DNA of 64,000 nt from Clostridiales bacterium (GCA_012840355.1 DULN01000006.1:5514-69513), one strand, 5' to 3'. Positions 1,136 to 57,641 are shown, counted from the stretch's first letter. Notes: generated by a model from the sequence alone, not told the origin. Translations and numbers: made by a program.

Positions 1136-2623
1136 ATGTCAAATCCTTCTCGGAGACTGGTTGCCTTAACGCTTGTTGTTGCCATCCTTTTTACGCTGGT
1201 ATCCTGTGCCGAAAAAACCGCCAATGTTGCAGACGCATCGAAAAAACCGGGTGATTCGTCAGCTTTGCAAGATGCCGAGACGGCATCCGATTACATTGCA
1301 AAACTCAGCGGCCAAAATTTCGGCGGGGAAACCTTTACGATATTGTGCACGCATACCGAGGAAAGACCTAATATGCCGTTCGAAGAAGAAGTTGGAGATA
1401 TATTTTATGACTCGGCATATAGGCGTGACCGCATAGTTGAAGACCTATTTAATATAAATATCGAATATATATCGGACACAGACCGCGGTGCCGTAAGGAC
1501 AAAGGTGATGAACACTGTTAATGCGCAGGAAGACGCGTATGATTTGCTTTTGACCACCACCGCGGATGGGTTCAACACCCTCGCTCCGGGCGGGTATCTG
1601 TATGACCTGCGCTCTGTGGACTCGCTGCTTTTGGACGAGGATTGGTGGTGCCAGTCGATGAACGAGGAGATGGTCGTCAACGGCAAACAGTATGTGGCGA
1701 CGGGACCGGCATGTTTGGCATACCTGTATAGCACATTTTTTGTTATTTTCAATATAAACCTTGCTTCTGACCGCGGGATTTCAGATGAAAGCCTGTATAA
1801 TGCCGTTATTGACGGAAAATGGACAATTGATATGCTCGCTAGCCTAATTAAAGGAGTGTACGCCGACCTGAACAACAATGGGAGAGCCGATACCGAGGAC
1901 TTTTATGGACTTGACCTTGACGACTCGCAGGGCAACGCCCTTTACGCCGGGGCAGGGCTTAAGACGACCCAAAGAAACCCGGACGGTATACCCGAACTCG
2001 TCATCGACAGCGAGCGCTCGATAACCGTGCTAGATAAATTCAACTCCCTTTTCACTACTCAAGATGTTATACAGACCGAATCACTTGGAAATGACCCGTC
2101 AGGATTGTCGTACAAAATCTCGCTTTTCAAGAATAGGCGCTCGCTGTTTAGCTTAAACCGTGCAGCTTTCGTCATGTCATACCTCAGGGATATGGAAGAC
2201 GACTACGGTATCCTTCCCGTTCCTAAATACGAAGAATCGCAGAAATCGTATTATACGCTCTTTGACCCTTGGATGCCGAGCGGGATCGGGCTTCTTAAAA
2301 CCGTTTCCGATGCGGAAAAAGTCGGCATTGTAACAGACGCAATGGCATACTTGGGCTACACCACAGTGCAGCCCAATGTCTTGAGCCTCACGCTGAAAGA
2401 AAAAATCGCGCGCGACGAGAATTCCAAAAAAATGCTCGACATCGTATACGATAACATCACCGTCGATCTCAACACAATATTCAACTTTGGCGAAACCTCT
2501 ATATATTTGAGACAATATGCGGTCGGCAGCACTTCCAATTTCATCTCTACTTATAAAAAAGTAGCCAAAGCAGCCCAAAAAGCGCTTGAAAAGCTTATGG
2601 AGCAGTACGACGTCATAACATAA
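1136..2623 (+). CDS. extracellular solute-binding lipoprotein (sugar-ABC SBP family 1 / LplA-like), paralogue 1
   Basis: ORF 1121-2623. ATG 1136 lies 7 nt after GGAGGG. Signal peptide with lipobox LVSC. Shares family motifs DGKWTID and MEDDYGILPVPKY...YYT with the seven other paralogues in the window. Confidence 0.75.
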   Translation: MSNPSRRLVALTLVVAILFTLVSCAEKTANVADASKKPGDSSALQDAETASDYIAKLSGQNFGGETFTILCTHTEERPNMPFEEEVGDIFYDSAYRRDRIVEDLFNINIEYISDTDRGAVRTKVMNTVNAQEDAYDLLLTTTADGFNTLAPGGYLYDLRSVDSLLLDEDWWCQSMNEEMVVNGKQYVATGPACLAYLYSTFFVIFNINLASDRGISDESLYNAVIDGKWTIDMLASLIKGVYADLNNNGRADTEDFYGLDLDDSQGNALYAGAGLKTTQRNPDGIPELVIDSERSITVLDKFNSLFTTQDVIQTESLGNDPSGLSYKISLFKNRRSLFSLNRAAFVMSYLRDMEDDYGILPVPKYEESQKSYYTLFDPWMPSGIGLLKTVSDAEKVGIVTDAMAYLGYTTVQPNVLSLTLKEKIARDENSKKMLDIVYDNITVDLNTIFNFGETSIYLRQYAVGSTSNFISTYKKVAKAAQKALEKLMEQYDVIT

Positions 2624-2656
2624 AACGCCGATGTTGGTGTAATTAAATAAACTAAA

Positions 2657-2700
2657 CCTCCTGTGATAGCAAAACCTATCGCAGGAGGTTTTAAATGCTT
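2657..2700. terminator. intrinsic terminator between convergent genes
   Basis: CCTCCTGTGATAG (2657-2669) pairs with CTATCGCAGGAGG (2676-2688) with one wobble, followed by a T-rich tract. Confidence 0.6.
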
Positions 2701-2764
2701 TTTATATTATCGGCTTATCGGCGGTATTAAAAGAACAAGCCAAGTATAAAACGCATCCATTTTG

Positions 2765-3889
2765 TTAGCCAACATTTTTACAGCCTAATATTAAGCATTT
2801 GCAGAACAAAATTCCAAAGCAATGTTTATCACATGGACAGTTGGGCATATCTGGATTGGGGCATGAGCAATTATCTTCGCTGCAATCGCAGTTTTCGCCG
2901 CACGTGCAATCGTTACCGCAGCCGCATTTTTGCTCATCATTGCCGCAATCGCAGTCGGTGCAGTCGCCGCCGCAGTCGCCGCATTCACTGCATGGGCAAT
3001 TGGAGCTGCCGCCGTTGCCGCAATCGCAGTCGGTGCAGTCGCCATCACACTCGCTGCAGCCATCGCACGGGCAATTGGAGCCGCCGCCATCACCACAACC
3101 GCATTCAGGGCAATCGCCGTCGCACTCGTCGCAAACGTCACATGGGCAGTTGGGCTGCTCGTCGCCGCCTTCGCCGCAGCCGCAGTCGGGGCAATCGCAG
3201 TCGTCGCATTCTTCACATGGGCAGGTAGGCTCTTCTACGCTTTGTTCGCAGCCCGGGCATTTGCATTCTGGGCAGTTGCCATTGCACTCGCAGCCATCGC
3301 CGGTGCAACCATCGCACGTGCACTTGGGCGGCTCAGGCTTGTTCGGTGTGCCCCCGCCGCCGCCACCGCCGGCGGGAGCCCAGCTTAAGCTAGGGGCGGG
3401 CATGTCGGGTTTTTCTATGAACTCATATGCGCCGATGTCGATTGTGCCGCTGACACGCGTGCCATTTTTTAAGTCGTAGCCTAATAGCACGTTGTGAGCG
3501 GTAGAAAATGAACGTGCATTACTGGTGTAATCGTCGTTATTTCCTTTGTCAACTAAAACCGAGCTGCTCTTTGGCTCAAAGCTGCCCGAGTTTTTGAACA
3601 GATCTTTATGATTGGACTTGGAAATGTCTATGTTATTATAGGTATCGTCGAAAAGAATAAAGTCTTGTGATTGCTCGCCTATTGCATTATTGTAAAACGC
3701 GTAAGTGCCGAGGACTTCTTCGCTTTTGCTTTCCCTATAGACCTGATCGCCGCCGTCATTGCCCCAAATTACATTGTTGTAAAATGCCAGATTGATATTG
3801 TCGTCGACAGTTATATGTACGCCGGCACCTGCTTTGCCTTTTTCTTCGGATATACCGTTGTAAACAATAGTGTTGTTTATAAGTGTTGT
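2765..3889 (-). pseudogene. surface beta-helix (Pmp / choice-of-anchor-like) protein, 3' fragment with Cys-rich repeat tail
   Basis: Hand translation shows this frame is open from 3889 down to the stop at 2765. The ORF track shows only 2765-3490 because no ATG/GTG/TTG occurs upstream. It reads NNTIVYNGISEEKGKAGAGVHITVDDNINLAFYNNVIWGN...IDIGAYEF, then a G7/Pro linker, then ~185 aa with ~51 Cys. It joins the upstream fragment only if one copy of the 13-bp duplication is removed. Confidence 0.75.
2927..3229 (-). repeat. four tandem 72-81-bp coding repeats (7-Cys units)
   Basis: Units are PTCPCEECDDCDCPDCGCGEGGDEQ / PNCPCDVCDECDGDCPECGCGDGGGS / NCPCDGCSECDGDCTDCDCGNGGSS / NCPCSECGDCGGDCTDCDCGNDEQK. 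The DNA units are also visibly similar, e.g. GCAATCGCAGTCGGTGCAGTCGCC occurs twice on the + strand. Confidence 0.85.
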
Positions 3890-4538: not shown

Positions 4539-5826
4539 ACTCGACACTTTGCCGAAAGTGGACCTAAAAGGGCTAACGGTTCGCGCGCTGGCACGAAAAA
4601 ACTCGTGGTGGCAGCTTACAGAGATTAGCGCTACCGAGCTAAACGGAGAAGTTATCAACGACGCCATTTACAACCGCAACCTGAAGCTTGAGTCAACTTG
4701 CAATATAAAGTTTTTGACGGAACATGTCGACTCCGTCGGAAATACAATCCGCGCGCTCATAATGGCAAATGATAGCACATATGAATTTATTCTTGCGAAT
4801 ATGAACGAGAGTGCAACGCTTGCGGGCGACGGCATGCTTATTAATCTTTACAGCATTCCGACGCTTGATATGTCAAACCCTGCGTGGGACCAAAACGCCA
4901 ATGATTATTTCAGCATAGCAGGCAAGCTTTATTATGGGGTATCCGACATATCGCTTGGCAAAAACGAAGCGATTTGGTGCTACATGTTCAACAAACGGCT
5001 AATAAAGGATTTTGCGCTTGATGATCCGTACCAGCTAGTTCGAGAGGGCAAATGGACATTTGACATATCGCACCAAATGATGACCGTTGCAACCGCCGAC
5101 CTTAATGGAGATGGCAAAATAACCGCCGACGCTGACCGGTATGGTTTAGCGACACACGAGGTAAACTACTATGCGCTGCTAATTGCCGGCGGCGAGCCAC
5201 TTGCGCGCGCAGGCAGCGAAGGGGTTCCGGTGATTACTGCCGGCAGCGACAGGTTTATATCGGTCTATGATAAAATTGTTTTGCTGTTTACCCAAAACGA
5301 CATGACGCTAATCGAGTATGAGGGCAAGGCATTTATGGCTGGCCGCGCGCTGCTCTGCGGGCAGGTTTTAGCATGCGTGCGCCTATTTAGGCCGATGGAA
5401 GACGACTTTGGCATAATCCCCTTGCCCAAATATGACGAGCTGCAAAAGCAGTATTACTCTTATGTAATACCTTACGATATTTTTTCAGCTTCGGTGCCTG
5501 TTACGGCAAATGATTTAGAAGTATCGGGCTATGTGCTGCAGGCACTCGCCATCCTTTCGGATTATTATATCACGCCGGCTTATTATGATATTACGATTAC
5601 TGGCAAAGGGTTGCGCGACGAGGAGTCGGCAGAGATGCTTGACATAATACTTGATAGTACCGTCTACGACCTGGCGCGCATGTATGATTGGGGCGCGGTA
5701 GCGTCTAGCATAGTGGCGAATATGATGTCGGGCAAAGATTTCATGTCGTTCTATAAAAAACGCGAGAAAGCGGCAAACTCTGCCTTGCAAAAAACCGTCG
5801 ATGCTTTTATTTCAAGCGCTACATAG
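4498..5826 (+). pseudogene. solute-binding lipoprotein paralogue 2, 5'-truncated (no signal peptide or lipobox)
   Basis: ORF 4549-5826. The frame is open from 4498, just after an in-frame TAG at 4495-4497. It begins in the low-complexity linker (SAAETTVAETTTILDTLPKVDLKG), then has family motifs INDAIYNRN, EGKWTFD, MEDDFGIIPLPKY. About 30-50 N-terminal residues, including the signal peptide and lipobox, are missing relative to the paralogues. Confidence 0.7.
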
Positions 5827-7661: not shown

Positions 7662-9503
7662 ATGCTTAGACCCGTTGCAATGGAATTTTTGCCGCCGCGC
7701 GACATTAAGCCGCTTGGCTGGCTAAGGCGGCAGCTTGAAATACAGGCGAACGGGCTTTCCGGCAATCTTGATAAAATGTGGCCGGATGTGCGCGACAGCC
7801 GCTGGGTTGGTGGCGACAGGGAAGGCTGGGAGCGGGTTCCTTATTGGCTTGACGGTTTTATTCCGCTCGCCTACCTGCTTGACGACAAGGACATGCAGAG
7901 CCGTGCGGCAAAATATATGGACGCAATTCTGAACCGCCAGGAACCGGACGGCTGGATTTGCCCCTGCCCGCCGGAACATCGCGGCGGCTATGATATGTGG
8001 GCGCTAATTTTAATGGCTAAAGTTATGATGGTCTATGCGGAGTGCTCCGGCGACGAGCGCATTGTTCCGGCGCTGACCGCAGCCCTTCGCAATTTCAGCA
8101 ACCATATCAACTCCTGCACACTGTTCAACTGGGGCGCGGCGAGATGGTTTGAGGCGCTGATACCGATTTTCTGGCTCTACGAGAAAACCAGCGAAGATTG
8201 GCTGCTTGACCTTGCGCACAAGCTGAGGGTGCAGGGCTTTGACTACCAGACCCTGTTTGAGCATTACAGGGACATGGTCCCGCAGAGGCGCTGGACTTAC
8301 CTTACGCATGTAGTAAACCTTTCGATGTGCTTAAAATCGGGCGCGCTGATAAGCAGGATGTATGGCGGGGACCCGAATAGATTTGCAAAACTCGCGATAG
8401 AAACGCTTGACAAGTACCATGGCATGGCATGCGGCCAATTTACAGGCGACGAATGCGTCTCGGGCGACAGCCCCGTGCAAGGCACCGAGCTTTGCGGCGT
8501 GGTCGAAGCGATGTATTCATATGAGCAGCTGCTCTCGATTACCGGCGATCCATACTGGGGCGACAGGCTCGAGAAGCTTGCGTTTAACGCTCTTCCCGCT
8601 ACCATCAGCGAGGATATGTGGACCCACCAGTACGACCAGATGACAAACCAAGTGCAGTGCTCAAGGCTACCCGACGGGCATGTGATCTTCCGCACCAATT
8701 CCGGCGAGTCCCACCTGTTCGGGCTTGAACCGAACTATGGCTGCTGCACCGCAAACTTTAACCAGGGCTGGCCGAAATTTGCGCTGTCGGCTTTCATGCG
8801 CACGCCGGGTGGGCTGGCTTCGGTCATACCGGTTCCGTCTGAGGCGCGAATTGAAATAGGCGGCACAGAGGTAAAGTGCAGGCTCGACACAGAATACCCG
8901 TTCAAAGGCTTGCTCGTATACACTATTGATGCCGAAAAACCGGTTGAGCTTGAGTTTTCAATCCGCATACCCGGTTCGGCTGCTGCGGCGTATGTCGACG
9001 GCGAGCAGGTAAAATGCGGCGAGTTTTACCGCATAAAGCGAACCTGGTCGGGGCAAAGCAAAATTGAAGTTAAGCTCGTTTTCGAGTGCTCGCTTGTAGC
9101 CCGCCCGCGCGGCATGGCTTGCCTTTGGAGAGGCCCGCTGCTTTACTCGCTCGAGTTAAACGAGGAATGGAGGCCGTTCGAGTACATAAGAGGCGGCGTT
9201 GAGCGCAAATTCCCATATTGCGACTACGAGCTCTACACAGACTCGGATTGGGCGTTCGGCTTTGCCAGCGGCGAGTTTGAGGTCCACGAAAACGAGGTCT
9301 CGGATATCCCGTTCTCGCACTCCAAACCGCCGGTGGTTATCGAAACTTATATGTACCCGCTTGACTGGAAGATGGAGTATGGTATATGCGCGGTCGAGCC
9401 AAACTCGCGCAAGCCGACTGGGCCTGCAGTTAAAAAACGCTTTATCCCCTACGGCTGCGCGAGGCTGCGCATGACCGAAATGCCTGAAAAGTGCGAAGAA
9501 TAA
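7662..9503 (+). CDS. GH127-type (DUF1680, beta-L-arabinofuranosidase-like) glycoside hydrolase
   Basis: SD GGGAGGAG upstream of ATG 7662. N-terminal LGWLRRQLEIQANGLSGNLDKMWPDV...GWERVPYWLDG typical of this family. Candidate Zn/Cys site E-x-C (GTELCG) plus CC (YGCCTANF). No signal peptide. Confidence 0.75.
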   Translation: MLRPVAMEFLPPRDIKPLGWLRRQLEIQANGLSGNLDKMWPDVRDSRWVGGDREGWERVPYWLDGFIPLAYLLDDKDMQSRAAKYMDAILNRQEPDGWICPCPPEHRGGYDMWALILMAKVMMVYAECSGDERIVPALTAALRNFSNHINSCTLFNWGAARWFEALIPIFWLYEKTSEDWLLDLAHKLRVQGFDYQTLFEHYRDMVPQRRWTYLTHVVNLSMCLKSGALISRMYGGDPNRFAKLAIETLDKYHGMACGQFTGDECVSGDSPVQGTELCGVVEAMYSYEQLLSITGDPYWGDRLEKLAFNALPATISEDMWTHQYDQMTNQVQCSRLPDGHVIFRTNSGESHLFGLEPNYGCCTANFNQGWPKFALSAFMRTPGGLASVIPVPSEARIEIGGTEVKCRLDTEYPFKGLLVYTIDAEKPVELEFSIRIPGSAAAAYVDGEQVKCGEFYRIKRTWSGQSKIEVKLVFECSLVARPRGMACLWRGPLLYSLELNEEWRPFEYIRGGVERKFPYCDYELYTDSDWAFGFASGEFEVHENEVSDIPFSHSKPPVVIETYMYPLDWKMEYGICAVEPNSRKPTGPAVKKRFIPYGCARLRMTEMPEKCEE

Positions 9504-9596: not shown

Positions 9597-12161
9597 TTAT
9601 GCTTCTATACACAACGTATCGTATACGCATACGGGGCTGACAAACATAATTTTGCCGCCTTCAATGTCAAACGGCGCCTTTTCGCCGCTGTTGTAAGCCG
9701 CTTTCGCAGCAAAACCGCCTGGGAGTATGAAGGCATTTAAATTTAGTTTTCCCTTTAGTACCGTGAGGACAATCTTATCAATTCCGATTTGCACTGTTCC
9801 CCAAGCGCCGTCGACGGACCAAAAACACATAAACGGCCGCTCTTTTGTAACCGGGTCAAACCCGATCTCGCCTTTAGTCATGTCAAACCTAAAGCCTGAG
9901 AACGCGGCAAGCAGCGCAAAGCTTGCCATCGAGCGCGCATAACTTGCCCCGCACTCAATTTCCGAATAGGGATTGCGCTTTTTGCCGTCGTACCGGTCGC
10001 GGATTGCCCTCACTACCTCGGTTCCTTCATCGACGAGTCCCTCCTGAATCATCAGCCCCGCTGCCGCATACTCAAATCCTGTCATGCACTCTTCGGCGTA
10101 CGGGATTGGGATTTGCGGCTTGTACTCGCCTTGCGGCCACTCGCAAATTACAACGCCGCGCTCGTCGTTTAGAGCGAACACCCTGCAGGGGTTAAACACT
10201 TCGCGCATGGATTTGAAATTTATCTCATATAGCGAGCGCGCTGCGGTCTTGCGATGATTCTTGTCAAATATATCTCCAATCCCAATCAATGTGGCGTGCC
10301 ACTGCGCGACGAGCTGGTCGATTTCGCAGCCGCAGCCATATTGGTATTTTATTTCGTTCTTCTCGCTGTTCCAGTAGTAGCTGTAAATACTGGGGTCATA
10401 TTCCGCAAAGCGGTCGAGCAGGGATTTGTTGGACACGTCAATTTTCTGAATGTAGTAGCGCCCGTTATAAAGCTCGTTTTCTACATGTTTTTTGCCTTTT
10501 TCTAAAATCACGCGGTATTCTTCGGCTTTATCATGCTCACCAAGGTAGTCGGCGATTTCGGCGCAGGCGGCGAGAGCGGCGAGATAGAAACCCGTGAGCC
10601 ACGAGCTTGAGCCGAAAAGTTCGACGTCCAGCGTGTGGTGCTGCCGTCCCGTCAGCACTCCGGATTTGTCAGGGTCCCATAAATCGCGGTTATCGGGGCT
10701 CCACGCATACTCCAGCGTCTTTTTGACAGTGCCCCAATATTTACGCAGCCATGCGTCGTCGCCCGAAAGTTTCCACTCGCGGTAGAAGCGGAGGATGCTG
10801 CCCATCTGCCCGTCGACGCAAGCCCTGAAGTTCCACTTCCCGCTGCCGAGCGGCAGCATGGTGCGGAACATCATCTCCCCGTTTTCTTTGACGTTGTTTT
10901 CGTAATTGATTTCTAGAATATTCCGTGCAAGCCGCGGGAACAGGAAGGGAAGGGAATACTGATACTGCCATACATGGTCGCAAGTTCCCTCACACGAGCC
11001 GCTGTTTGCGTTTGTGCCTTCAAAAGCCCAAAACTCGCCGTTTTCAAGCCTAAGGCAGGTAGCGCTTTTAAGGACCGCTAGGTTTGAAGCGGCGGCGTCG
11101 ACGCATTCAGGCGGAAGCGAGCTCCCGAAGAGCGCATTGCTAAATTTCATCGATTCACAGTAAAGCGTATCCCAATTTTCAAAGCAGTACCGCTGTACAT
11201 CTATTGCGCTATTAAACCGCCGGCAGTACTCGTGTTTCCACACCGGCCTTTGATTGTCCCAATACTTTACGAAGTTCGGGAAGTACCACGTCAGCAAAAA
11301 GCGGATCTTTTTGCTTTCGCCGGGCATGAGCCTGACATGTGCGGCGAGTGTCGCCATATCTCCAGTGTCAATCTTGCCGTTGAGGTTATTGTTATCATAA
11401 TGGCGGTTTTTCAGCTTGCCGGGCGACGAAAACTCGCGCCAGAAGGTCACAAGGTCGTCAAACCACCCGCTACGGTACCAGTATTCCTGATATGAAACAT
11501 CCAGCCAGTTGGTCGACACCAAAAGCTCGCCATACTCGGGTTGCTCGGGCGTGTAGTTTTTGCTTGAAAGAAGGATAGAAGACGTACTGCCGTCCGAAAG
11601 GAACTTGTCAAACCCGCCGTCGGAAGTCCGGAACGGATTCCCTACTGAAAAAGCAAGCGTGTAGTCGGTTTCTTCGCTAAAGGTGTTTTTTATATTCCAC
11701 TCGAAAAATGCCGCTGGCAATGAGCTGTTGTCCTCGTCGCCCGGGATGAAAGGGTTAAAGGCGAGAAGCTCAATATCTGCGGGCATTTTTTCAGCGCTGT
11801 ATGTTATGTTTGCGAAAGGGAAAAATCCGCGGAATGCGACGTCGCTAAAGTGCGGGATCCCGGCGAGCGTGGTACGGTTCGGGCCATGTCCATAGCCCCA
11901 GGAATGGTGGTGCGCGGCGTATGGCACGCCCATGAGGTCCTTTGTCAAATCTCCGTGCAAAACCCGCGCGTCTAAAACTTTTCCACTCCGCTCGGCTTTG
12001 ATTGCAAAATGGGTGTATTCGTTTACTGAAAACTTATTAGCCCTACCGGTTAACTCCCAGTCGACAAGCGCGCCTATACCGGAAATCCCAATCCCGCCTG
12101 TCCCTATGCCCGAGAGCGGGAAGACAATTTCCCTCAAATACTCTCCCCTGTATGTTTTCAT
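9597..12161 (-). CDS. GH116-family beta-glucosidase / GBA2-type glucosylceramidase-like enzyme
   Basis: 854 aa. GGAGGG 7 nt upstream. N-terminal IVFPLSGIGTGGIGISG...VDWEL typical of the GH116 N-domain, followed by a long C-terminal catalytic region. Cytoplasmic. Directly downstream of SBP 12246-13745 on the same strand. Confidence 0.8.
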   Translation of the reverse strand: MKTYRGEYLREIVFPLSGIGTGGIGISGIGALVDWELTGRANKFSVNEYTHFAIKAERSGKVLDARVLHGDLTKDLMGVPYAAHHHSWGYGHGPNRTTLAGIPHFSDVAFRGFFPFANITYSAEKMPADIELLAFNPFIPGDEDNSSLPAAFFEWNIKNTFSEETDYTLAFSVGNPFRTSDGGFDKFLSDGSTSSILLSSKNYTPEQPEYGELLVSTNWLDVSYQEYWYRSGWFDDLVTFWREFSSPGKLKNRHYDNNNLNGKIDTGDMATLAAHVRLMPGESKKIRFLLTWYFPNFVKYWDNQRPVWKHEYCRRFNSAIDVQRYCFENWDTLYCESMKFSNALFGSSLPPECVDAAASNLAVLKSATCLRLENGEFWAFEGTNANSGSCEGTCDHVWQYQYSLPFLFPRLARNILEINYENNVKENGEMMFRTMLPLGSGKWNFRACVDGQMGSILRFYREWKLSGDDAWLRKYWGTVKKTLEYAWSPDNRDLWDPDKSGVLTGRQHHTLDVELFGSSSWLTGFYLAALAACAEIADYLGEHDKAEEYRVILEKGKKHVENELYNGRYYIQKIDVSNKSLLDRFAEYDPSIYSYYWNSEKNEIKYQYGCGCEIDQLVAQWHATLIGIGDIFDKNHRKTAARSLYEINFKSMREVFNPCRVFALNDERGVVICEWPQGEYKPQIPIPYAEECMTGFEYAAAGLMIQEGLVDEGTEVVRAIRDRYDGKKRNPYSEIECGASYARSMASFALLAAFSGFRFDMTKGEIGFDPVTKERPFMCFWSVDGAWGTVQIGIDKIVLTVLKGKLNLNAFILPGGFAAKAAYNSGEKAPFDIEGGKIMFVSPVCVYDTLCIEA

Positions 12162-12245: not shown

Positions 12246-13745
12246 TTACGCGTTTTGGTTGCTGTAGAAGTTTTCAAAATACTCGATGACCGATTCGTAA
12301 TGCTTCATTATGGACTTTTCGTATTTTGCCCAATATGATGCGACGTTGGGGTTGTTTTGGTCAACAAGGTTTTGTATGATGAATGCCGCGCCGCTCCATG
12401 CGTCGTAGACATAGCCGAAATCAAACACCCGGCTGTTTACAATCATGTCGAGCATCGCAATCGATTCTTCGTCGCGGGTGCCTTTGAACTTCAGGGCGAC
12501 GTCATAGTAAGCGGGTACGACTTTTTTATAGCTTTCAGCGCAAAGCGCCTCGGTGATAACGCCGATAAGCTCGGTATTCGAAACGGTTATCGGCACAGCC
12601 ATTACCTGATGGCTGCCGTCGACCATCGTGTAATATTTCGACTGGTTTTCGTCCCATTTCGGGTAGGGCAAAATCGCGTAATCGTCCTCAAGGTCGCGGA
12701 AATATCCGAGCGCGTCTCCTATGTTGGCGTTAGCGAAGACAGAAAGCCCGCGCGCAAACATGTCGCGGCCGTACATGTGCCTAAATGCCCCGTCGACGTT
12801 GGTGTAATTTCGGTCCATGCGAATGCCTTCGTAGGTGGTAAACCCTTCGAGAATCTTTTGCACGATGCTCGCAGTCTTATCGAGGTTGAGCGAGAATTCC
12901 AGCTTTCCTTCATTATTTTTTCTATAAATCGGGTTGTCAAATGCCCAGAGGTACGCGCATACATTAGACATGCAGTCTGATGTTAAGCCGTAAAGATCGT
13001 CGTTGTCAACCTGGCTGTTGTGGTTTTGGTCGACGTAAATGTCTTTAGAAAGGCTGATAAGATAGTCGATAGTCCAGCTTCCGTCGTTTACAATCTTATA
13101 TAGGTCCGGGATGCCGTAATCCGCCCCAAGCTTTTTATTATAGAAAACGCAGTACGTCTTGCCAATTGCGGATAAAATGAAGTCCCCGATTGCGGTAATG
13201 CAAACGCCGTTGTATGTAAGGTCGTTGATGTTGGAGTCGGACCACCAAGGCTTTTCGAAATTCACTTTAGGGATATCGTACCAGTTTAAAAAGTAACCGT
13301 TAGGCACGATTTGGCCAAGGACCACCACATGCCAGCACACGAGGTCAATCGCATCCTCGTTTGCGGTGACGGTATTGATTATAATCCCGGTTTCGCGGTG
13401 CCCGGTATCGTTTACAACGGTAATTTTGCAGTTAAAGCGTTCTTCAACCGTGCGGTTGCGCGTGTAAATCGCGTCGTCGACCACATCGCCAGAGCTTTCT
13501 TCCATAAAGTAGTGGTCGGTCATATTGTTGCAAGTCGCGATACGGAATTTATACCCGTCAAAATTGTAGCTGCCCAGCTCGTCGTCAATTTTTTCACGGC
13601 TGTTTAACCCCTCGCTTTCGCTTTGTAGCTCGGCAGTACTGGTGGTGTCTTCCGGCAGCGTCGATTTACCCGAAGACGCATTGCTGCAAGCGCCGAAGGC
13701 TAATACGGCGACGAGCAATAATAAAGATATTAGCCTTTTTGACAC
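12246..13745 (-). CDS. solute-binding lipoprotein paralogue 3
   Basis: GTG 13745 after AAAGGGG. Lipobox FGAC. Motifs VDDAIYTRN, DGSWTID, LEDDYAILPYPKW...YYT. Confidence 0.8.
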   Translation of the reverse strand: MSKRLISLLLLVAVLAFGACSNASSGKSTLPEDTTSTAELQSESEGLNSREKIDDELGSYNFDGYKFRIATCNNMTDHYFMEESSGDVVDDAIYTRNRTVEERFNCKITVVNDTGHRETGIIINTVTANEDAIDLVCWHVVVLGQIVPNGYFLNWYDIPKVNFEKPWWSDSNINDLTYNGVCITAIGDFILSAIGKTYCVFYNKKLGADYGIPDLYKIVNDGSWTIDYLISLSKDIYVDQNHNSQVDNDDLYGLTSDCMSNVCAYLWAFDNPIYRKNNEGKLEFSLNLDKTASIVQKILEGFTTYEGIRMDRNYTNVDGAFRHMYGRDMFARGLSVFANANIGDALGYFRDLEDDYAILPYPKWDENQSKYYTMVDGSHQVMAVPITVSNTELIGVITEALCAESYKKVVPAYYDVALKFKGTRDEESIAMLDMIVNSRVFDFGYVYDAWSGAAFIIQNLVDQNNPNVASYWAKYEKSIMKHYESVIEYFENFYSNQNA

Positions 13746-13991: not shown

Positions 13992-15485
13992 ATGATGCTG
14001 AGCCCGAGACGGTTTATAGCGTTTGCTTTAGCGTTTTTGACTGCGCTATTAGCTGCTTCATGCGGCGGCGCAGCAAACAGCCCAGTATCAAAGGTTGACA
14101 CCGAAAATGCTGCTGATGCGACTTCGGGGGAGATTGCGGAAACGAATAAGATAAACTGGGAATCGGCAAACCTGCCGAAGAAAGACTTTGATGGCAGGGA
14201 ATTTGTTGTCCTTACTCGTGAGCCTCCTAACAAGCAGCTTACGTGGTATATGGTCGTGCCCGAAGAGCTAAATGGCGAGTCTCTAAACGACGCGATGTAC
14301 AACCGCAACGCGAAAATAGGCGAAATATACAACACATCAATTGTTTCGCATTATTCGACGGCTATAAGGACCGACGCTAGCAATGCGATAGCTTCGGGCG
14401 ATACCACATTCAGCGCTGTATTCGGCAGGATTTCAGATACATACCCCCTTGCGCAGGAAGGGCAGTTTTTAAATTTCCATAACCTGCCTTATACAAACCT
14501 TGAAGCCCCGTGGTGGGACCAGTCTATAGTTCGTGACCTTACGTATCGCGGCGCTTTATATAATCTCACAGGCGATATTTCTCCGGCAACGAACGTGCGC
14601 GTGTACACAATGGTATTTAACAAGGACATGTGTAAGAGCTTGAATCTCGACTACCCATATCAGTATGTGTACGACGGCACATGGACAATTGATAGGTTTA
14701 ATCAATACATAACAGACGTAAACACCGACCTTAACGGCGACTCGGTGATGGACTATAATGACCGCTGGGGGTTCTTCAGCCAGGACGGGTGCTCCTGGAT
14801 GATGTATTTCGCCGGCGGCGGCCAAGTGGTTGTAAAAGACCCGAGCGGCGAGCTTGTTGTCGCTTACAATACCGACCGCAATATACAGCTCGCGATTAAA
14901 GCGCTTGAGATTGCTATTGATAAATCGAAAACTCTGATGGCGAACCATTATGTCGCTAATAACGGCGGGAACTGGGCCACGGCTACCGCGTGGTTTGCAA
15001 ACGGCGGGGCGCTGTTCCGCTCGTCGGTTCTTGAGCCGATACCTCGCGATTTGCGCTCGCTTGAGGTTAACTTCGGCATAGTCCCGTTCCCGAAGCTCGA
15101 CGAAAAACAGATCCAGTATTACACGCTGCCCGAAGAAACCTCAATAATGTTCAGCGTGCCGGTGACCGCCGACCCTGAATTCGCATCGCTTATCCTCGAG
15201 TCGCTTGCGGCTGAGTCGGTGTCTACCATATCCCCCGCGTTTTATGACATCTGCCTTAACGGCAAAGTCGTGCGCGACGAAGAGTCGAAAGGAATGCTTG
15301 ACATTATATTTTCAAACAAGATATTCGACATCGGGTATATCACTAACATCGGAAATTTCAGGACAATGCTTGTAAACCTTGAAAAGAGCGCAAGCACCGA
15401 CGTTGCTTCAACATTTGCAAAAACGCTCAAGTCGGCAGAAACTACGCTGCAAAAACTCTGCGAGAACTTTGAAAAGATAGGCTAA
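13992..15485 (+). CDS. solute-binding lipoprotein paralogue 4
   Basis: ORF 13935-15485. ATG 13992 after GGAGG. Signal peptide ...LLAASC. Motifs LNDAMYNRN, DGTWTID, NFGIVPFPKL...YYT. Confidence 0.8.
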   Translation: MMLSPRRFIAFALAFLTALLAASCGGAANSPVSKVDTENAADATSGEIAETNKINWESANLPKKDFDGREFVVLTREPPNKQLTWYMVVPEELNGESLNDAMYNRNAKIGEIYNTSIVSHYSTAIRTDASNAIASGDTTFSAVFGRISDTYPLAQEGQFLNFHNLPYTNLEAPWWDQSIVRDLTYRGALYNLTGDISPATNVRVYTMVFNKDMCKSLNLDYPYQYVYDGTWTIDRFNQYITDVNTDLNGDSVMDYNDRWGFFSQDGCSWMMYFAGGGQVVVKDPSGELVVAYNTDRNIQLAIKALEIAIDKSKTLMANHYVANNGGNWATATAWFANGGALFRSSVLEPIPRDLRSLEVNFGIVPFPKLDEKQIQYYTLPEETSIMFSVPVTADPEFASLILESLAAESVSTISPAFYDICLNGKVVRDEESKGMLDIIFSNKIFDIGYITNIGNFRTMLVNLEKSASTDVASTFAKTLKSAETTLQKLCENFEKIG

Positions 15486-16962: not shown

Positions 16963-16991
16963 TTGACAACAGAACTTCTTTGTGTTACGAT
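16963..16991 (+). promoter_or_regulatory. sigma-A-type promoter for the heparinase-like gene
   Basis: TTGACA (16963-16968), 17-nt spacer, TGT-TACGAT (16983-16991). A second TGGTATAAT lies at 17002-17010. Confidence 0.45.
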
Positions 16992-17085
16992 AGCCGTCGA
17001 GTGGTATAATATAGTAAAACCCGCAAGACGTATCGCGCGTTTTGTAGGCAGTCCGCTCAAAAACTGCTTGAAAGGAGCCATAGCC

Positions 17086-18945
17086 GTGTTTGTCGAGTGG
17101 CTAAGAAGAAACAGGGTAATCGATTTTATCGAAGCCCCCGAGAGTTTTCACCCATATCCCAAAGCGTCCGAGAGGGACAAATGGGAGAACATTCCCGAGG
17201 AAGTGGCAAGCGCTTGTGTGCGGCAGGCGGAAAAATATTTAGGATTTGAGTGGCCTTCGCTTCCCGCGACCAGCTTTATGGCTTATATGAGGACAGGCGA
17301 CAGAAGGGTATACGAAGACCGCCATTTCCCAAGGCGTAGGGCTTTGGCGGCATTGGTGCTCGGCGAATGCGTGGAAGGTAAGGGCAGGTTTATAGACGAC
17401 ATTATAAACGGCATCTGGTGCATTTGCGAGGAGTCATTCTGGGGGGTGTCCGCCCATAACGGCGTGCGGGCAAACGAGCCGCTCCCCGACGTCGAGGACA
17501 GATACATAGACCTTTTCGCCGCCGAAACGGGCGGGCTTTTGGCTTGGACGAAATACCTTTTGGCCGACGAGCTTGACAAGGTTACTCACCTGGTGTCAAG
17601 AAGGATAGATATTGAGCTTGAGGAGCGCATTAAAAAGCCGTTTTTGTGCCGCGAGGACTTCTGGTGGATGGGAACCGTAAACAGGGCGGTCAACAACTGG
17701 ACCCCGTGGATCGTCGCAAACGTAATGAGCGTTTTCCTTTTATGCGAGCCCGACAGCGTCCGTCGAGCCAAAGCTATTGAAAAAATGTTCAGGTGCCTTG
17801 ACTGCTTTGTAAACTCATACCACGACGACGGTGGCTGCGACGAAGGCACCTCATATTGGAATGTCGCGGGCGGTGCGCTGTTCGATTGCCTCGACCAGCT
17901 TTATAAAGCATCGAGCGGCAAAATCGATTTCTTCCAGAACGAGCTGGTCCGCCAGATCGGTCGCTATATTTACCGCTGCCATATCGCGGACAAATACTTT
18001 ATAAACTTTGCGGATGGCGGCGCGAGGATCGATATTGCAAAAGACATGATTTATCGCTATGGCAAGCGTATCGGCGACCCGGCTATGGTGGCGCTTGCCG
18101 TCGGAGTTCCGACAAATGCCGATTTCAGGTCTGAAGCGCTCAGGCGAGCGCTGCCGGCTATATTCAACTACGCGGAGCTGGCAAGCCAAAAATCGGAGCC
18201 TCCATATGTCCGGGACGTGTGGATGGACGGCATACAGGTTATGGTCGCACGCGAGAAAGCCGGCTCTGCAGAAGGGCTATACCTCGCGGCAAAAGGAGGG
18301 CACAACGCCGAAAGCCACAACCACAACGACGTCGGATCCTGCATTGTGTTCGTCGACGGGCTACCGGGCATAATAGACGTCGGGGTCGAGACCTATACAA
18401 AGAAGACCTTCAGCTCACAAAGGTATGAAATTTGGACAATGCAGTCCCAGTACCATAACTTGCCGACTATAAACGGAAAAATGCAAAGCCCAGGCGGGCA
18501 ATACCGCGCTACTAATGTCAAATATGATATGAGCGATGACGAGGCGGTTTTCTCGTTGGATATAAATAACGCATACCCGAAAGACGCGAATGTAAAGCTA
18601 TATAGCCGCACATACAGAATGCACCGTAAGGAAAGCGAAAAAGGGTATATTGAGATTACCGACAGCTTCGTGCTTGAAACCGGCGAGGGCACGATATGCT
18701 GGAACTTCATGGTGTGGAAGAAGCCCGAGGTTATAGAGAGCGGGCTGATTAAAATAAAGATAAACGAAGAAACCGCATTCTATATGCAGTTTAGCGAAGA
18801 AAACGTAAAGGTCGACATCGAGCATTGCGACACAAGCGACGCACGGCTCAGGTCCGCATGGGGTGCGGATGGCGTGTATAGGATTGTAATGACTAAAACG
18901 GTTCCAAAGGAAGGGTGTTTCAGCGTCAAGGCATATAAAGCTTAA
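17086..18945 (+). CDS. heparinase II/III-family protein
   Basis: ORF 16963-18945. GTG 17086 lies 8 nt after AAAGGAG. GGHNAESHNHNDVGSCIVFVDG motif is typical of the heparinase II/III C-terminal domain. No signal peptide. Confidence 0.75.
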   Translation: MFVEWLRRNRVIDFIEAPESFHPYPKASERDKWENIPEEVASACVRQAEKYLGFEWPSLPATSFMAYMRTGDRRVYEDRHFPRRRALAALVLGECVEGKGRFIDDIINGIWCICEESFWGVSAHNGVRANEPLPDVEDRYIDLFAAETGGLLAWTKYLLADELDKVTHLVSRRIDIELEERIKKPFLCREDFWWMGTVNRAVNNWTPWIVANVMSVFLLCEPDSVRRAKAIEKMFRCLDCFVNSYHDDGGCDEGTSYWNVAGGALFDCLDQLYKASSGKIDFFQNELVRQIGRYIYRCHIADKYFINFADGGARIDIAKDMIYRYGKRIGDPAMVALAVGVPTNADFRSEALRRALPAIFNYAELASQKSEPPYVRDVWMDGIQVMVAREKAGSAEGLYLAAKGGHNAESHNHNDVGSCIVFVDGLPGIIDVGVETYTKKTFSSQRYEIWTMQSQYHNLPTINGKMQSPGGQYRATNVKYDMSDDEAVFSLDINNAYPKDANVKLYSRTYRMHRKESEKGYIEITDSFVLETGEGTICWNFMVWKKPEVIESGLIKIKINEETAFYMQFSEENVKVDIEHCDTSDARLRSAWGADGVYRIVMTKTVPKEGCFSVKAYKA

Positions 18946-22183: not shown

Positions 22184-22198
22184 TGTGGAGGCTTACCG

Positions 22199-36983: not shown

Positions 36984-37012
36984 GCCGCCCAAATCGGGCG
37001 GCCCGTTTTTTT
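36984..37012. terminator. bidirectional intrinsic terminator
   Basis: GCCGCCC (36984-36990) / GGGCGGC (36996-37002) followed by a T7 run. It overlaps the stop of the convergent SBP gene. Confidence 0.65.
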
Positions 37013-38722: not shown

Positions 38723-39892
38723 TCAAGGCGAAATTCGCACGCCATTTTTTATAAGGGATTGCTGCAGTGCTTTTATATCAAGCGATGCAAATTCGTCGCT
38801 CATCGCGGCGGCGGTGCCTGCTGCCTGACCGGTGACGGCGCAGCATGGGATCACACGCGTGACGTCCCACATACGATCGGTCACCGAAATGCATCTCCCG
38901 GCGGCGAGGAGGTTTTTGATTTCTTTCCCATACAGCGCTTCAAAAGGTATCGCGTATACGGGCCCGCTGCGGCGCCAGTCGCCGGTAAGCCCAACTGAGG
39001 TTTCCAAGGACTCATGCGGGTGTTCGTCGCTCAGCACCGTGACGCCTTCAAGCCTGCGGGTCATCCTTAGCTGAGGTATGGCTGGCACGGCGACTGGCCA
39101 GTATTGTTTTGCGGTTTCCCTTTGGCGGAGCACATCAAATAGGATTTGCTCGTGCGAGCGGTAGAGCATCTCGCTTATCTCAAAGGCGTCAAGCCCGGAA
39201 TACCTCTCCGCGCCTGTATCATCGTATATACCGTCAGCCGAGCCTAGTATTTTTAAGCCATACGCGCCGTCGCGATGGTAATAATACCATGCTGCAAGCA
39301 GGTTCTTTTTCGCAAACACCGCGGTTTTTGCGTCGGCGAGCCGGCAAATGTCCGCATCGCCGGTCGCGTCGACAAAGGATTTCGCGGCAATTGCAACCCT
39401 GCCGCTTTTCGTTTCAAATATAACCGAGCGGATTTTACCATCTTTGACTGATGTGGCGCAAGCTAGCACCCCGTAAAGGATTTTCACCCCCTCGTCGAGA
39501 AGCAGTCGCTCCGCTTCAATTGCAAAAAGATGAGGGTTAAACTGCACCTCGTAGCGCACGGCTTTCCTCTCTTCCGGATTGCCGCCGTCGAGCCACGCCT
39601 TGGGGTATTTTCCCTCTGCACCATGCTTGATCGAAAGCTTTAGTAGCTCCTCACCGATCCCGAAGATAACCTGGTTGCCCATTCCGTCGCAGAGTGGAAG
39701 GTAGATTGTGACAAGCCCCAAAGTCGCAAGCCCGCCGAGCAAAAACTCCCTTTCTGCCAGAACAACGCGAGCTCCATGGCGCGCAGCCGCCAATGCCGCC
39801 GCGATGCCCGCCACGCCGCCGCCCACGACTAAAACGTCGCAGTCGCATAAAATCGGCACCTTTTGCTTTTCCTCTTCTATGTAGCCGCTCAA
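38723..39892 (-). CDS. FAD-dependent oxidoreductase (FAD_oxidored / PF12831-like)
   Basis: ORF 38723-39931. Preferred start TTG 39892, 5 nt after AGGAGGG. Dinucleotide-binding motif DVLVVGGGVAGIAAALAAARHGARV. C-terminal AGRCIS...VTGQAAGTAAA. Confidence 0.75.
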   Translation of the reverse strand: MSGYIEEEKQKVPILCDCDVLVVGGGVAGIAAALAAARHGARVVLAEREFLLGGLATLGLVTIYLPLCDGMGNQVIFGIGEELLKLSIKHGAEGKYPKAWLDGGNPEERKAVRYEVQFNPHLFAIEAERLLLDEGVKILYGVLACATSVKDGKIRSVIFETKSGRVAIAAKSFVDATGDADICRLADAKTAVFAKKNLLAAWYYYHRDGAYGLKILGSADGIYDDTGAERYSGLDAFEISEMLYRSHEQILFDVLRQRETAKQYWPVAVPAIPQLRMTRRLEGVTVLSDEHPHESLETSVGLTGDWRRSGPVYAIPFEALYGKEIKNLLAAGRCISVTDRMWDVTRVIPCCAVTGQAAGTAAAMSDEFASLDIKALQQSLIKNGVRISP

Positions 39893-40071
39893 AAAAATCC
39901 CTCCTAAAATTGCAGCTGGCTTGTAACGCATGCTGCCTATACCCGCGCTAACATGTTACTAACATAATTATACCATGGATATTTAAAATACCGTACTTTG
40001 CATAAAGAATATTGAAAAAAGGCTAAAAATGGGATATACTTAGATTAGCCAACAATAGTGGGGGTGTAAGA

Positions 40072-43759: not shown

Positions 43760-44044
43760 ATGATGGCAAATGCGGCTGCGGACAGCGTCCATATGATGGT
43801 GCCGCGGGAAAAGATGAGCCGCGGAGCGAGGCTTATGAGGGTAGTTTACGGCTTGTACCCGGCGCGCCAATTTTACCAGGCGGAGTTTGGCTTTTACTCG
43901 ATCGAGCGCTGGAGGAAGAGAAGGGTAAATAGTCGTTACACCGACCTAAACGCCTTGTTCGGTTACGACCCGCCCGGAAGGCATCATCTCGGCGGGCTAG
44001 GATGGTGCGAGGCGGGTGCCGGGCGGAGCTATTTTGGCTTTTGA
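43760..44044 (+). pseudogene. possible N-terminal remnant of a URO-D-like gene
   Basis: Part of ORF 43652-44044. From MMANAAADSVHMMVPREKMSRGARL...ERWRK...LNALFGYDP it loosely resembles the N-termini of the two URO-D-like genes further right. The ORF dies inside the 3' end of the convergent AraC gene. Weak call. Confidence 0.3.
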
Positions 44045-44913
44045 AGCTTTGCGTTTTTATCGCGGTATTCCTGCGGGGTCTGAGATTTTAATGCCTTAAA
44101 ATCCGCGATGAAGTGGCTGACGGATTTGTACCCTGTTTCAATCGCGACTCGCTTTATCGGGTAGCTTGTCAAATCAAGGAGCTGGCATGCCTTCATTATC
44201 CGGTATTTTTTAATATACTCAATCGGCGTGTGTCCGGTGTAATATTTGAAAATGCGAATGGTGTGGCCGGCGGATTTGCAAATAAGCCTGCTGAGGTCGT
44301 CTATAGTGATTTTTTCCATATAGTGCGCTTCGATATAGCTTAGGATTTCCTTGATTATATCGCCGTTGTCGGGTCCCATGCTAACGTCTTTGACGGCTTG
44401 CTCGAGCAAGTCGTGCAGCAGCAAGCCGATAATGCGCGAGTCGTTTATTTCGGCTTCTATGCCGAAGTTTTGAGACTCGAGCAATATGTCTATTTTGTCG
44501 GTAAGCTGCCGGATGTTGGTGGCGGGGAAGACATACCCGCGCTTTTGAGATATAAAATCGAGGATGTTTGTGTTTTTGCTCTTTTTAATGTTTATCCAGA
44601 AAAATTCCCAAACGGCACCCTTAGTGCTATAGCTGTGCTGAATGCTTGGCGGGAATATGCATATCTTGTTTTTGTCGGCTTTGTAGCTGTTATTGTTTAT
44701 AACTATATCTCCGCACCCGCCGATCGAAAGGATTACAAGATACTCGTCTTGCAAGCCTTCCGGCCTGTGTAACCCGTAATTTTCGTTAACACAATGCCAA
44801 CCAAAGTGAGTCGCCACATTTAGGATACCGTCAAGCGTCCCGGAACTAATGCGACGTATTTCCTTGGTTTCCCCGCAATAAGTGTCGTTGATGTAAAGCT
44901 TGGATTTGTCCAT
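44029..44913 (-). CDS. AraC-family transcriptional regulator
   Basis: ORF 44029-44973. ATG 44913 (MDKSKLY) after GAGGA. Cupin-like N-domain and complete double HTH (...DLSRLICKSAGHTIRIFKYYTGHTPIEYIKKYRIMKACQLL...IETGYKSVSHFIADFKALKSQTPQEYR). Confidence 0.85.
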   Translation of the reverse strand: MDKSKLYINDTYCGETKEIRRISSGTLDGILNVATHFGWHCVNENYGLHRPEGLQDEYLVILSIGGCGDIVINNNSYKADKNKICIFPPSIQHSYSTKGAVWEFFWINIKKSKNTNILDFISQKRGYVFPATNIRQLTDKIDILLESQNFGIEAEINDSRIIGLLLHDLLEQAVKDVSMGPDNGDIIKEILSYIEAHYMEKITIDDLSRLICKSAGHTIRIFKYYTGHTPIEYIKKYRIMKACQLLDLTSYPIKRVAIETGYKSVSHFIADFKALKSQTPQEYRDKNAKLQKPK

Positions 44914-45204
44914 TTTTATCCTCGACTTTATTGTAACCAAAGTGAACTGTTGCGATGTAGACAGAAAAGTCAAGCGGAAAGAAAGATATTAATATACCTA
45001 ATTATAAATCCTGAATCCTAGATTTTCAATCACAAAACCGCATAGTCAGAATTCACCAGCATATATCGCGAGGGGATATATCCCTTTGCTAATTATTTCG
45101 TGGAAAATTTTAATATAAAAAGCAACAATGCTTAATATTGTCAGTGCTCCTTAATTGTTTGCTATAATGTAGCAAAAATAAAAGCACGGAGAGGTGAAGG
45201 GCAA

Positions 45205-56160: not shown

Positions 56161-56396
56161 TAGAGTACATAAAAATGCTCGGTGCCGGCTTTAGCACCGA
56201 GATTTTTTATAGCTTTTTGCATTATCCCCCATGTTCGGTTATCCTCCTGCACGCGCCGGTCGAGGGTTATAAAATATGCGCTAAAGCCTGACACTCGCAC
56301 GACGAGGTTTTGGTATTTTTCGAGTTTGCGCATCGCGTCGAGGAGCACCTCGCGCGAGACTGAGTTAATCAGTATCACCTGCCCGCCGCGGCTCAT
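56097..56396 (-). pseudogene. C-terminal remnant of a glycyl-radical enzyme (PFL-like)
   Basis: MSRGGQVILINSVSREVLLDAMRKLEKYQNLVVRVSGFSAYFITLDRRVQED matches the GG.H.qfNvv...L.dA...PekY..L.VRVsGy/fSA.F glycyl-radical signature. There is no SD and no upstream enzyme body. The reading frame overruns into the convergent hydrolase gene. Confidence 0.6.
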
Positions 56397-56545
56397 GATG
56401 CAAAGCTTTATTGATAGAGATTGCCGAAATACTACTAAAAAGACAAAGAACACCATAAATACTATTGAATTACAGAAGGCATTTAGTTATAGTATTAATG
56501 TAATCCGCTTTGGCGGGAACGATTAACGAAAGCGGGGGTCGCAGC

Positions 56546-56896
56546 ATGAGAAAAGCTACCGCAATATTGCTTATGGCTTTATTGCCGCTTGCTTTTTTGG
56601 CGATATCGTGCTCGGATAAGGCAGCGCAGGTAAAGGCGCCGGGGGGGACAATGGCAAGCTCTTTGGAAAGTTACGCGGAAACCACAAGGAAAAGCGCCGG
56701 TGTGCCCAGCAGGGACTATGGCGGGAAGTCTTTTGACATCTTTGTCTCGGGGAACTGGGCTAACGATTGGACCGAATCATATGATTTTCACGCGCCGGAA
56801 ATGAACGGCGAGCTTATCAATGACGTTGGTCAGAAAGCACACATGGACGATGGACAATTTTGTCAGGATGGCAAGGCAAGTATCGAGCGACCTTAA
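56546..56896 (+). pseudogene. solute-binding lipoprotein paralogue 8, 5' fragment
   Basis: ORF 56510-56896. ATG 56546. Lipobox AISC. It follows the family up to ...EMNGELIND and then leaves the frame. Confidence 0.7.
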
Positions 56897-57641
56897 CGGC
56901 GATTCGAAGTTCGACCACAATGACCTTTACGGGATGTGTGTCTGGCAGGATGGTATGCTTGCCGCTATTAATGCCGCCGGCGGGCGGATAGGCAGGATTA
57001 ACGAAAATGGCGAAATTGAGCTGACGCTTAACACCGAGCGCAATGTCGATATGCTGATGAAGTTTATGAGCCTGGTGTGCGACCGGACGGTTGCTTATTC
57101 AATTTACCACTCGGGCGACCATATTGAAAACATGTTTGCAAACGACCAAGTGTTGTTTTATAATCGTTATTTGAATATAGTGAAAAAATACCGCAACATG
57201 GAAACCGATTTCGGGATTTTGCCGTTCCCGCTTTATGAAGAGGCGCAAAAGGAATACCACACGACTGTGCACGCTTATGGCAACTCGTTTATATGCGTGC
57301 CACTGGTCGTCGAGGACGTCGAGATGACGGGAATAGTGCTTGAAGATATGTCGTGCGAGTCGGTGTACATAATAACCCCAGCTTATTATGAGATTTCGCT
57401 TCAAGGCAAGCTTTTGCGCGACAACGAGTCGAGCGAGATGCTCGATATAATCCTTTCCACAAGGCTTTACGACGTCGGCGCCTCTTATCAAATCGGCACG
57501 TACAACGAGCGTATAATGGATATGTTCAGAAACAACACCACCGACTTTGCCTCGATGTATAAAAAGTTTGAAAAAATAGCGCTGAAAGACGTAGAAAAGA
57601 TCAACGAGGCGTTTTCAGAGGTTTTAGGCAAAAACGGCTGA
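56820..57641 (+). pseudogene. solute-binding lipoprotein paralogue 8, 3' fragment
   Basis: It resumes in another frame at LVRKHTWTMD (= DGxWTxD motif) and runs to the normal C-terminus (METDFGILPFPLY, PAYYEISLQGKLLRDNESSEMLD). About 130 residues between the two motifs are missing relative to the paralogues. Confidence 0.7.

Follow-up and report, generated by a model that had tools for sequence, protein, structure and literature searches.

An unannotated family of CUT1-like binding lipoproteins in Clostridia, encoded apart from permease genes

How might a bacterium use a substrate-binding protein (SBP) whose gene stands without a permease gene beside it? In the CUT1/LplABC-type sugar ATP-binding cassette (ABC) loci of Firmicutes, the SBP gene is normally contiguous with two permease genes. 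A 64,000-nucleotide stretch of a Clostridiales bacterium (GCA_012840355.1 DULN01000006.1:5514-69513), hereafter the window, carries eight paralogous lipoprotein genes that a preliminary description took for SBPs without cognate permease or ATPase genes, each beside a cytoplasmic glycan-processing enzyme. Here, we follow these genes beyond the window. While the expansion of orphan SBPs is a known theme, what is new is a large, unannotated, CUT1-like family in Clostridia without linked permeases. When carbohydrate use by gut Firmicutes is predicted from genomes, an SBP and two permeases in one operon are assumed, a rule that this family of thousands systematically breaks. Annotation at present calls most of its genes "hypothetical" and overlooks the receptors together with the loci that they mark.

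A divergent family of binding lipoproteins

Open reading frame (ORF) listing, alignment and a family hidden Markov model (HMM) agree on the eight paralogues first described in the window (Table 1). Their products are about 490 residues long and, by ORF translation and multiple alignment, share 25-31% pairwise identity with copy 1. Six are intact; one lacks its start owing to a deletion, and one bears an internal deletion together with a frameshift. The family HMM matches the six full-length copies with E = 1e-144 to 1e-164, the truncated copy (4498) with E = 1e-129, and the two pieces of the disrupted copy (56546) with 5e-80 and 2e-10. The starts originally assigned at 1136, 13992 and 56546 are correct, the seven quoted lipoboxes can all be seen, and the lipobox cysteine is invariant across a 57-sequence family alignment. 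The shared motifs, as first written, hold approximately rather than exactly: copy 1 reads YDSAYRRD, and copies 2, 6 and 8 differ in DGxWTxD. Paralogue 1 is identical to the sequence P0001, which is present on at least 24 contigs.

The two damaged copies, one described earlier as truncated and the other as disrupted, are indeed so. Three sibling assemblies, 99.3-99.8% identical to the window, contain 693 bp that it lacks, the junction being at 4507-4509. The deletion takes a shared promoter region and both of the starts that flank it, those of paralogue 2 and of a divergent beta-helix gene. In the siblings, the counterpart of paralogue 2 is intact, at 477-483 aa, and the window has a genuine deletion allele of it. 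Paralogue 8 keeps its signal peptide and lipobox in 56546-56893, but about 130 residues of lobe 1 are gone and the remainder lies in a second frame. A Cys-rich repeat ORF (2765-3490, minus strand; "CPC..C..C.GDC..C.CG") and a right-handed beta-helix ORF (3756-4667, minus strand) correspond to a single gene of 581-648 aa in the sibling strains, where the length of the repeat tract varies by strain.

Domain databases say little about these proteins directly. None of the eight copies exceeds the cut-off of any Pfam or NCBIfam model, the best match being to SBP_bac_1 (E = 0.037; 14.5 bits versus a cut-off of 26), and some homologues carry precomputed PF01547 or PF13416 matches. SBP_bac_5 matches none of the eight—its sole match in the window is the gene at 25363-27117 (1.5e-66)—and Pfam likewise gives no TctC match among them, their structural neighbors being CUT1 SBPs instead. 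A profile built from the eight copies matches AbnE, an arabino-oligosaccharide binding protein (6rjy), with E = 1.6e-7 over 250 residues. The match covers the region of "WT.(D/E)" and "D.NGDGK.D..G", and the family motifs "WT.D" and "YGI.P.PK" line up with the standard CUT1 motifs of AbnE.

Structure prediction points the same way. An AlphaFold2 model of paralogue 5, with 57 homologues in the input, reached a predicted local distance difference test (pLDDT) score of 87.2 and a predicted template modeling (pTM) score of 0.85. When this model was compared with the PDB by Foldseek, the top 50 matches all had the SBP fold (sugar SBPs, UgpB and fusions to maltose-binding protein), at E = 1.5e-15 to 8e-13. 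Lmo0181, TMBP, AbnE, UgpB, RafE, MalE3, GacH, CbpB and a beta-1,2-glucan binder led the list, with template modeling scores of 0.6-0.7 on the target. The profile match to AbnE and the structural matches together uphold the earlier SBP assignment and lead us to regard the proteins as divergent CUT1-type binding proteins, predicted to adopt a two-lobed fold with a longer helical C-terminus. Shared with CUT1 SBPs such as AbnE, Lmo0181, RafE and MalE are the two-lobed fold, the "WT.(D/E)" and "YG(I/V).P.P" motifs and, as in Gram-positive members, lipoprotein anchoring. Unlike them, the family falls below Pfam and NCBIfam thresholds, is some 80-100 residues longer by virtue of the helical C-terminal extension, and is not encoded in operons with two permeases. 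Its ligands are predicted to be carbohydrates.

The family extends far beyond the window. A word-indexed search returned 108 homologues, mostly unnamed or "hypothetical", from metagenome-assembled genomes (MAGs) of Clostridia, Oscillospiraceae, Ruminococcaceae and Eubacteriales. When 1.84 billion cluster representatives were searched exhaustively with a profile, 7,733 clusters, each at 50% identity, matched with E <= 1e-30. Because relaxing the threshold to 1e-3 raised this to only 18,779, the family appears to be both large and discrete, distinct from the general SBP_bac_1 population. Scanning GTDB genomes for the back-translated motif "YGI.P.PK..E.Q" gave at least 120 eight-kb blocks in about 75 genomes. 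Those listed belong to uncultured Clostridia living in guts, rumens and digesters (Candidatus Flemingibacterium among them), with one Cloacimonadota and one "bacterium" as exceptions, and among the matches listed a MAG has at least 3-8 family genes. Judged by these sequence searches, the family seems to be restricted to a lineage of uncultured Clostridia. A search of GTDB genomes with paralogue 5 alone found no relative, so the source species of the window is not represented in that database.

Receptor genes without permease genes

The claim that the receptors lack cognate permease and ATPase genes is correct for the window and holds family-wide. Within the 64 kb, BPD_transp_1 domains, or Walker A plus LSGGQ motifs, are confined to ORFs in 21239-25310, which the SBP_bac_5 gene follows. 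Domain scans thus bear out the view that this Opp/Dpp-type peptide operon contains the sole ABC membrane and ATPase genes of the window and is unrelated to the lipoprotein family. Beyond the window, no BPD_transp_1 gene was found in nine independent genomic contexts, each covering up to 10 kb on either side of the family gene, less at contig ends, and several lying on contigs of 100-343 kb. In the 120 listed GTDB blocks, the family HMM identified about 148 genes. Downstream sequence extends for 2 kb or more at 85 of them, and at 41 both flanks reach 2 kb or more.

Permeases were sought across 1.19 Mb in total by inspecting ORFs with at least five predicted transmembrane segments, by an EAA-motif screen whose detector was validated on MalG and SugB, and by phmmer and jackhmmer with six permease seeds. 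Apart from the Opp pair of the window, the yield was a Pst pair, an OpuA-type permease and one CUT1-like fragment. This lone fragment, at locus L096, lies 4.4 kb from a family gene, on the opposite strand and inside a different operon. Within the 1.19 Mb searched, about 170 family genes stood against a single CUT1-like permease fragment, an extreme imbalance on this local scale. The preliminary description had allowed that pairs of an SBP and an enzyme without a permease might be the ordinary, already described arrangement. Ordinary in this lineage it is; in the literature, we found no paper describing this family or any orphan CUT1-like SBP family in Clostridia.

What, then, accompanies the receptors? 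In other contexts, a 20-kb stretch commonly has two or three paralogues, and the layouts include AraC - SBP - heparinase-like, SBP - alpha-L-fucosidase, SBP - GH36 and AraC / GH32 / fructokinase / SBP, where GH denotes a glycoside hydrolase family. A Pfam census of 115 immediate neighbors elsewhere showed them to be very diverse, with AraC regulators the commonest at 8 of 115. SLH proteins, GH36, BNR/sialidase-like proteins, xylose-isomerase-like TIM barrels, and uronate and fucose isomerases are further types. In the window itself, Pfam confirms the GH127-like, GH116, heparinase II/III-like, GH36, FAD (flavin adenine dinucleotide) oxidoreductase, TIM-barrel and metallo-beta-lactamase (MBL) neighbors named at the outset, and an N-terminal signal sequence is absent from these Pfam-confirmed enzymes. 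The statement that each receptor sits beside a glycan-processing enzyme therefore stands for most copies in the window but fails as a rule for the family: the pairing of receptor and cytoplasmic glycan enzyme is frequent, not obligatory.

A further layout combines AraC, an SBP and components of the phosphotransferase system (PTS). In a rumen MAG (L013 9093-15748), a family SBP gene lies on the same strand between an AraC regulator and a complete PTS set comprising HPr, EI, EIIA and EIICB; at L073, a PTS EIIC gene adjoins a family gene. URO-D-family proteins, often with GFO_IDH_MocA oxidoreductases, also recur beside family SBPs in several genomes (Table 1). By eye, the URO-D protein of L096 closely resembles the product of window 48245-49282.

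Shared translocators and other readings

The reading toward which we lean, with slightly more confidence than doubt, is that modular receptors feed a few shared CUT1 translocators encoded elsewhere. Receptor genes would have lost their link to transporter operons, multiplied by repeated duplication and dispersed as solitary genes. At the cell surface, each receptor would bind its own oligosaccharide or sugar derivative, then dock on one of a few CUT1-type permease/ATPase translocators encoded at a distance. The imported sugar would be processed by the signal-peptide-less enzyme encoded beside the receptor, and an adjacent cytoplasmic regulator would sense it. Both the docking and the identity of the translocators are candidate elements of this scheme. 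In its favor, the adjacent enzymes lack signal peptides, and hence their substrates must be imported. The strongest argument is provided by loci such as AraC/GH32/fructokinase/SBP, which amount to full sugar-utilization sets minus the permease.

If translocators are shared, permease pairs should exist elsewhere in the same genomes, some of them without an SBP of their own. With the L096 fragment as a probe, two further MAGs were found to have close homologues (79-82% identical); orphan family genes also occur in one of these MAGs. A profile of the fragment and its homologues then retrieved 80 loci, six from family-bearing MAGs. By Pfam, the family-bearing MAGs CAZVPD01, CAADYN01, JAPXNL01, JAGAVJ01, CAZLED01 and JAQVWU01 have BPD_transp_1 pairs at other loci. 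Two of these loci, L183 and L214, have a permease pair without an adjacent SBP gene. The L183 pair is flanked by RimM/TrmD-like genes and an HlyD/MacB efflux set, whereas at L214 a family SBP gene lies 2.5 kb upstream of the pair on the same strand, with URO-D-like and CorA genes between. Such pairs at other loci, SBP-less ones among them, are what the shared-translocator model requires, and the CUT1-type pairs in six family-bearing genomes, two of them SBP-less, lend it circumstantial support.

The permeases related to L096 usually occur in a conserved cluster of unusual composition. It occurs in Clostridia and other Firmicutes, where a BlaI-like repressor is followed in turn by a fusion of a BlaR1-like M56 peptidase with SBP_bac_1/8 (577-968 aa), two BPD_transp_1 genes and an HlyD_3-like protein (Table 1). 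The permeases have a degenerate EAA motif (EEASLETSS) and a "WNMVEQP" motif, and the 87 ORFs flanking the 80 related permease pairs include 23 HlyD_3 and 24 SBP_bac_1 proteins. Between the family and the SBP domain fused to BlaR1 there is only a distant relationship (hhalign probability 89%). It is unusual in its own right for an ABC importer-like module to be coupled to a BlaR/BlaI-type transducer. It is possible that the conserved permease pair of this cluster serves as a hub. More tentatively, and at somewhat less than an even chance, we envisage either a lineage-wide hub-and-spoke mode of uptake, in which dozens of receptors per genome, each with its own regulator and enzymes, would converge on one or two hubs, or receptors that would operate without any ABC translocator.

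Several observations weigh against shared translocators as we have drawn them. The subfamily of permeases to which L096 belongs may, given its usual genomic setting, not be a general sugar importer, and a partner translocator was not found for the window's own genome. The GTDB blocks give partial flanks only. The neighbors of family genes are very heterogeneous, and so tight functional coupling is not supported. Nor did the relatives tested support receptor and enzyme as conserved orthologous modules: P0013, a relative of copy 5 at about 47% identity, has no adjacent heparinase-like gene, this being the one well-covered relative on which the test rests, since the contig of the relative of copy 3 is too short to judge.

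It is unlikely, in our estimation, that the proteins are instead extracellular sensors or co-receptors signaling to a membrane sensor—a histidine kinase, a chemoreceptor or a BlaR1-like transducer—after the fashion of ChvE, LuxP, the SBP-dependent three-component systems of Ruminiclostridium and some Bug proteins. Such a role would sit well with orphan status across the family, with regulators as the commonest neighbors, with the methyl-accepting chemotaxis protein (MCP) and CheR gene at the right end of the window, and with the distantly related SBP domain that the same lineage has fused to a BlaR1-like M56 transducer; a sensory role has also been proposed for the orphan SBPs of tripartite tricarboxylate transporters (TTT) (PMC5994714). 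The adjacent regulators, however, are cytoplasmic one-component AraC proteins with cupin/AraC_binding domains, which sense imported sugar, and neither a histidine kinase nor an MCP is recurrently adjacent among the 115 neighbors. Moreover, the adjacent catabolic enzymes are cytoplasmic and would still need an import route. More doubtful again is a role as surface glycan-binding proteins (SGBPs) that, in the manner of SusD, tether or concentrate polysaccharide without handing it to an ABC translocator. Lipid anchoring, the number and diversity of the proteins and the lack of a nearby permease gene would suit this role, but each protein is a single SBP domain without carbohydrate-binding or cell-wall anchoring modules. 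Few secreted glycanases are encoded nearby, the adjacent enzymes have no signal peptides, and the AraC/GH32/fructokinase/SBP loci are classical small-sugar uptake sets.

Two further explanations strike us as very improbable. One is that the eight receptors work through the Opp/Dpp-type permease at 21239-25310, which lies mid-island and is the only ABC translocator of the 64-kb stretch; sharing of Opp is known for orphan SBPs of the peptide type, MppA being an example. That operon has its own SBP_bac_5 receptor, however, whose nearest solved relatives are the peptide binders DppE and OppA (down to 1e-67), and an Opp operon accompanies family members in none of the other genomes examined. No CUT1-fold SBP is known to dock onto an Opp-type permease. 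Still harder to credit is that the genes only look orphaned, either because metagenome assemblies are fragmentary or because highly divergent permeases escaped detection. Most related sequences are indeed MAG contigs, and the regular-expression screen (E[AS][AS]..DGA plus a count of transmembrane segments) did miss one degenerate permease, that of L096. Against this, the 64 kb of the window are unbroken, and several of the contexts come from contigs of 100-340 kb. All ORFs with at least five predicted transmembrane segments were inspected and the jackhmmer searches added to them, and precomputed Pfam annotation has no BPD_transp_1 in any context looked up.

Shared translocators, the reading we prefer, have partial precedents. 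In the Bug/TctC expansions of Bordetella, Cupriavidus and Rhodoplanes, most SBPs are orphans, for which shared membrane components or sensing have been proposed (PMC5994714, PMC5812351). The present family likewise is a lineage-specific SBP expansion in which most members are orphans, although the likeness is one of genomic behavior only: Bug/TctC proteins belong to secondary TTT systems, are periplasmic in Gram-negative bacteria and bind carboxylates, whereas the family consists of ABC-type lipoproteins of Gram-positive bacteria with presumed glycan ligands. Individual cases are also known, as with Escherichia coli MppA, which uses OppBCDF (PMC3173086), and the LT-SBP homologues of Bifidobacterium without adjacent permeases (PMC8110962). 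Those are isolated, each genome having one such gene or a few; in the present family, by contrast, orphan genes are the norm, across some 7,700 clusters and with several to many copies per genome. The loci resemble Gram-positive polysaccharide utilization loci in bringing together a regulator, a binding protein and a glycoside hydrolase, and differ from them in lacking the membrane and ATPase components of a transporter.

Should many receptors prove to share few translocators, the lineage would offer a natural system for asking how one permease pair recognizes dozens of divergent SBPs, and how receptor duplication, with no other change, can let substrate range evolve. A receptor gene with its neighboring enzyme also provides a simple marker for new glycan-utilization modules in uncultured Clostridia.

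Other features of the window

Table 1. Coordinates of the lipoprotein paralogues, their neighbors and related sites. Positions are those of the window unless preceded by an L number, which marks a locus outside it.
Feature	Position	Strand	Remarks
Paralogue 1	1136..2623	+	Intact; lipobox LVSC; ORF opens at 1121; HMM E = 1e-164
Paralogue 2	4498/4549..5826	+	N-terminally truncated; without signal peptide or lipobox
GH127-like enzyme	7662..9503	+	PF07944, PF20736; without signal peptide
GH116 enzyme	9597..12161	-	PF12215 (1.7e-52), PF04685; without signal peptide
Paralogue 3	12246..13745	-	Intact; lipobox FGAC; GH116 gene next, same strand
Paralogue 4	13992..15485	+	Intact; lipobox AASC; divergent from paralogue 3
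Heparinase II/III-like protein	16963..18945	+	PF07940 (Hepar_II_III_C)
Paralogue 5	19197..20681	+	Intact; lipobox FSSC; downstream of heparinase II/III-like gene; copy used for model
Opp/Dpp-type peptide ABC operon (OppB, C, D, F, A)	21239..27117	+	BPD_transp_1, OppC_N, ABC_tran + oligo_HPY twice, SBP_bac_5
Paralogue 6	30535..32010	+	Intact; lipobox LVSC; weak SBP_bac_1 match, E = 0.037
GH36 alpha-galactosidase-like enzyme (Melibiase)	35106..36965	+	PF02065 (4.9e-41); without signal peptide
Paralogue 7	37011..38492	-	Intact; lipobox FTAC; downstream of FAD oxidoreductase gene, convergent with GH36 gene
FAD-dependent oxidoreductase	38723..39931	-	PF12831 (1.2e-56); upstream of paralogue 7
AraC-family regulator	44029..44973	-	Pfam
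Paralogue 8	56546..57641	+	Pseudogene; lipobox AISC; fragments 56546-56893 and 56820-57641 in different frames
Xylose-isomerase-like TIM barrel (AP_endonuc_2), then MBL-fold gene	57651..59307	+	Pfam; downstream of paralogue 8
URO-D-family neighbor sites	window 47037-51674; L140 9656-11493; L214 1718-2857; L096 4925-5950
BlaI/BlaR1-SBP cluster sites	L229 5918-11959; L149 (=L145) 2173-6347; L146 6656-10399; L153 2559-7019

One neighbor named earlier was not recovered. The label "GH42-like", given to 28576-30149 on the minus strand, could not be reproduced, as the region has no Pfam or PDB sequence match; it holds two overlapping ORFs of 275 and 264 aa that resemble one frameshifted gene. Between paralogue 2 and the GH127-like gene, 6076-7482 (plus strand) encodes a further lipoprotein of 468 aa with the lipobox LAGC and no Pfam match; it contains two internal repeats, each about 190 aa long ("Y.YT.F.CPYTDGNG..."), and an acidic linker rich in Thr and Glu. 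Downstream of paralogue 6, a 179-aa ORF (34260-34799, plus strand), also without a Pfam match, terminates in ...AKAVHMSKSHFYKAV at the apparent onset of an AraC-type helix-turn-helix, and may be a truncated regulator.

Toward the right of the window, 51869-53653 (plus strand) encodes a stand-alone N6/N4 DNA methyltransferase (PF01555), with no restriction partner visible in the window. Farther on, at 59796-62947 (plus strand), lies a gene for an SLH-domain surface protein with a pectate-lyase-like adhesive domain, read as 786 aa up to a stop at 62156. Its apparent continuation in other frames (62165-62572 and 62624-62947) suggests frameshifts.

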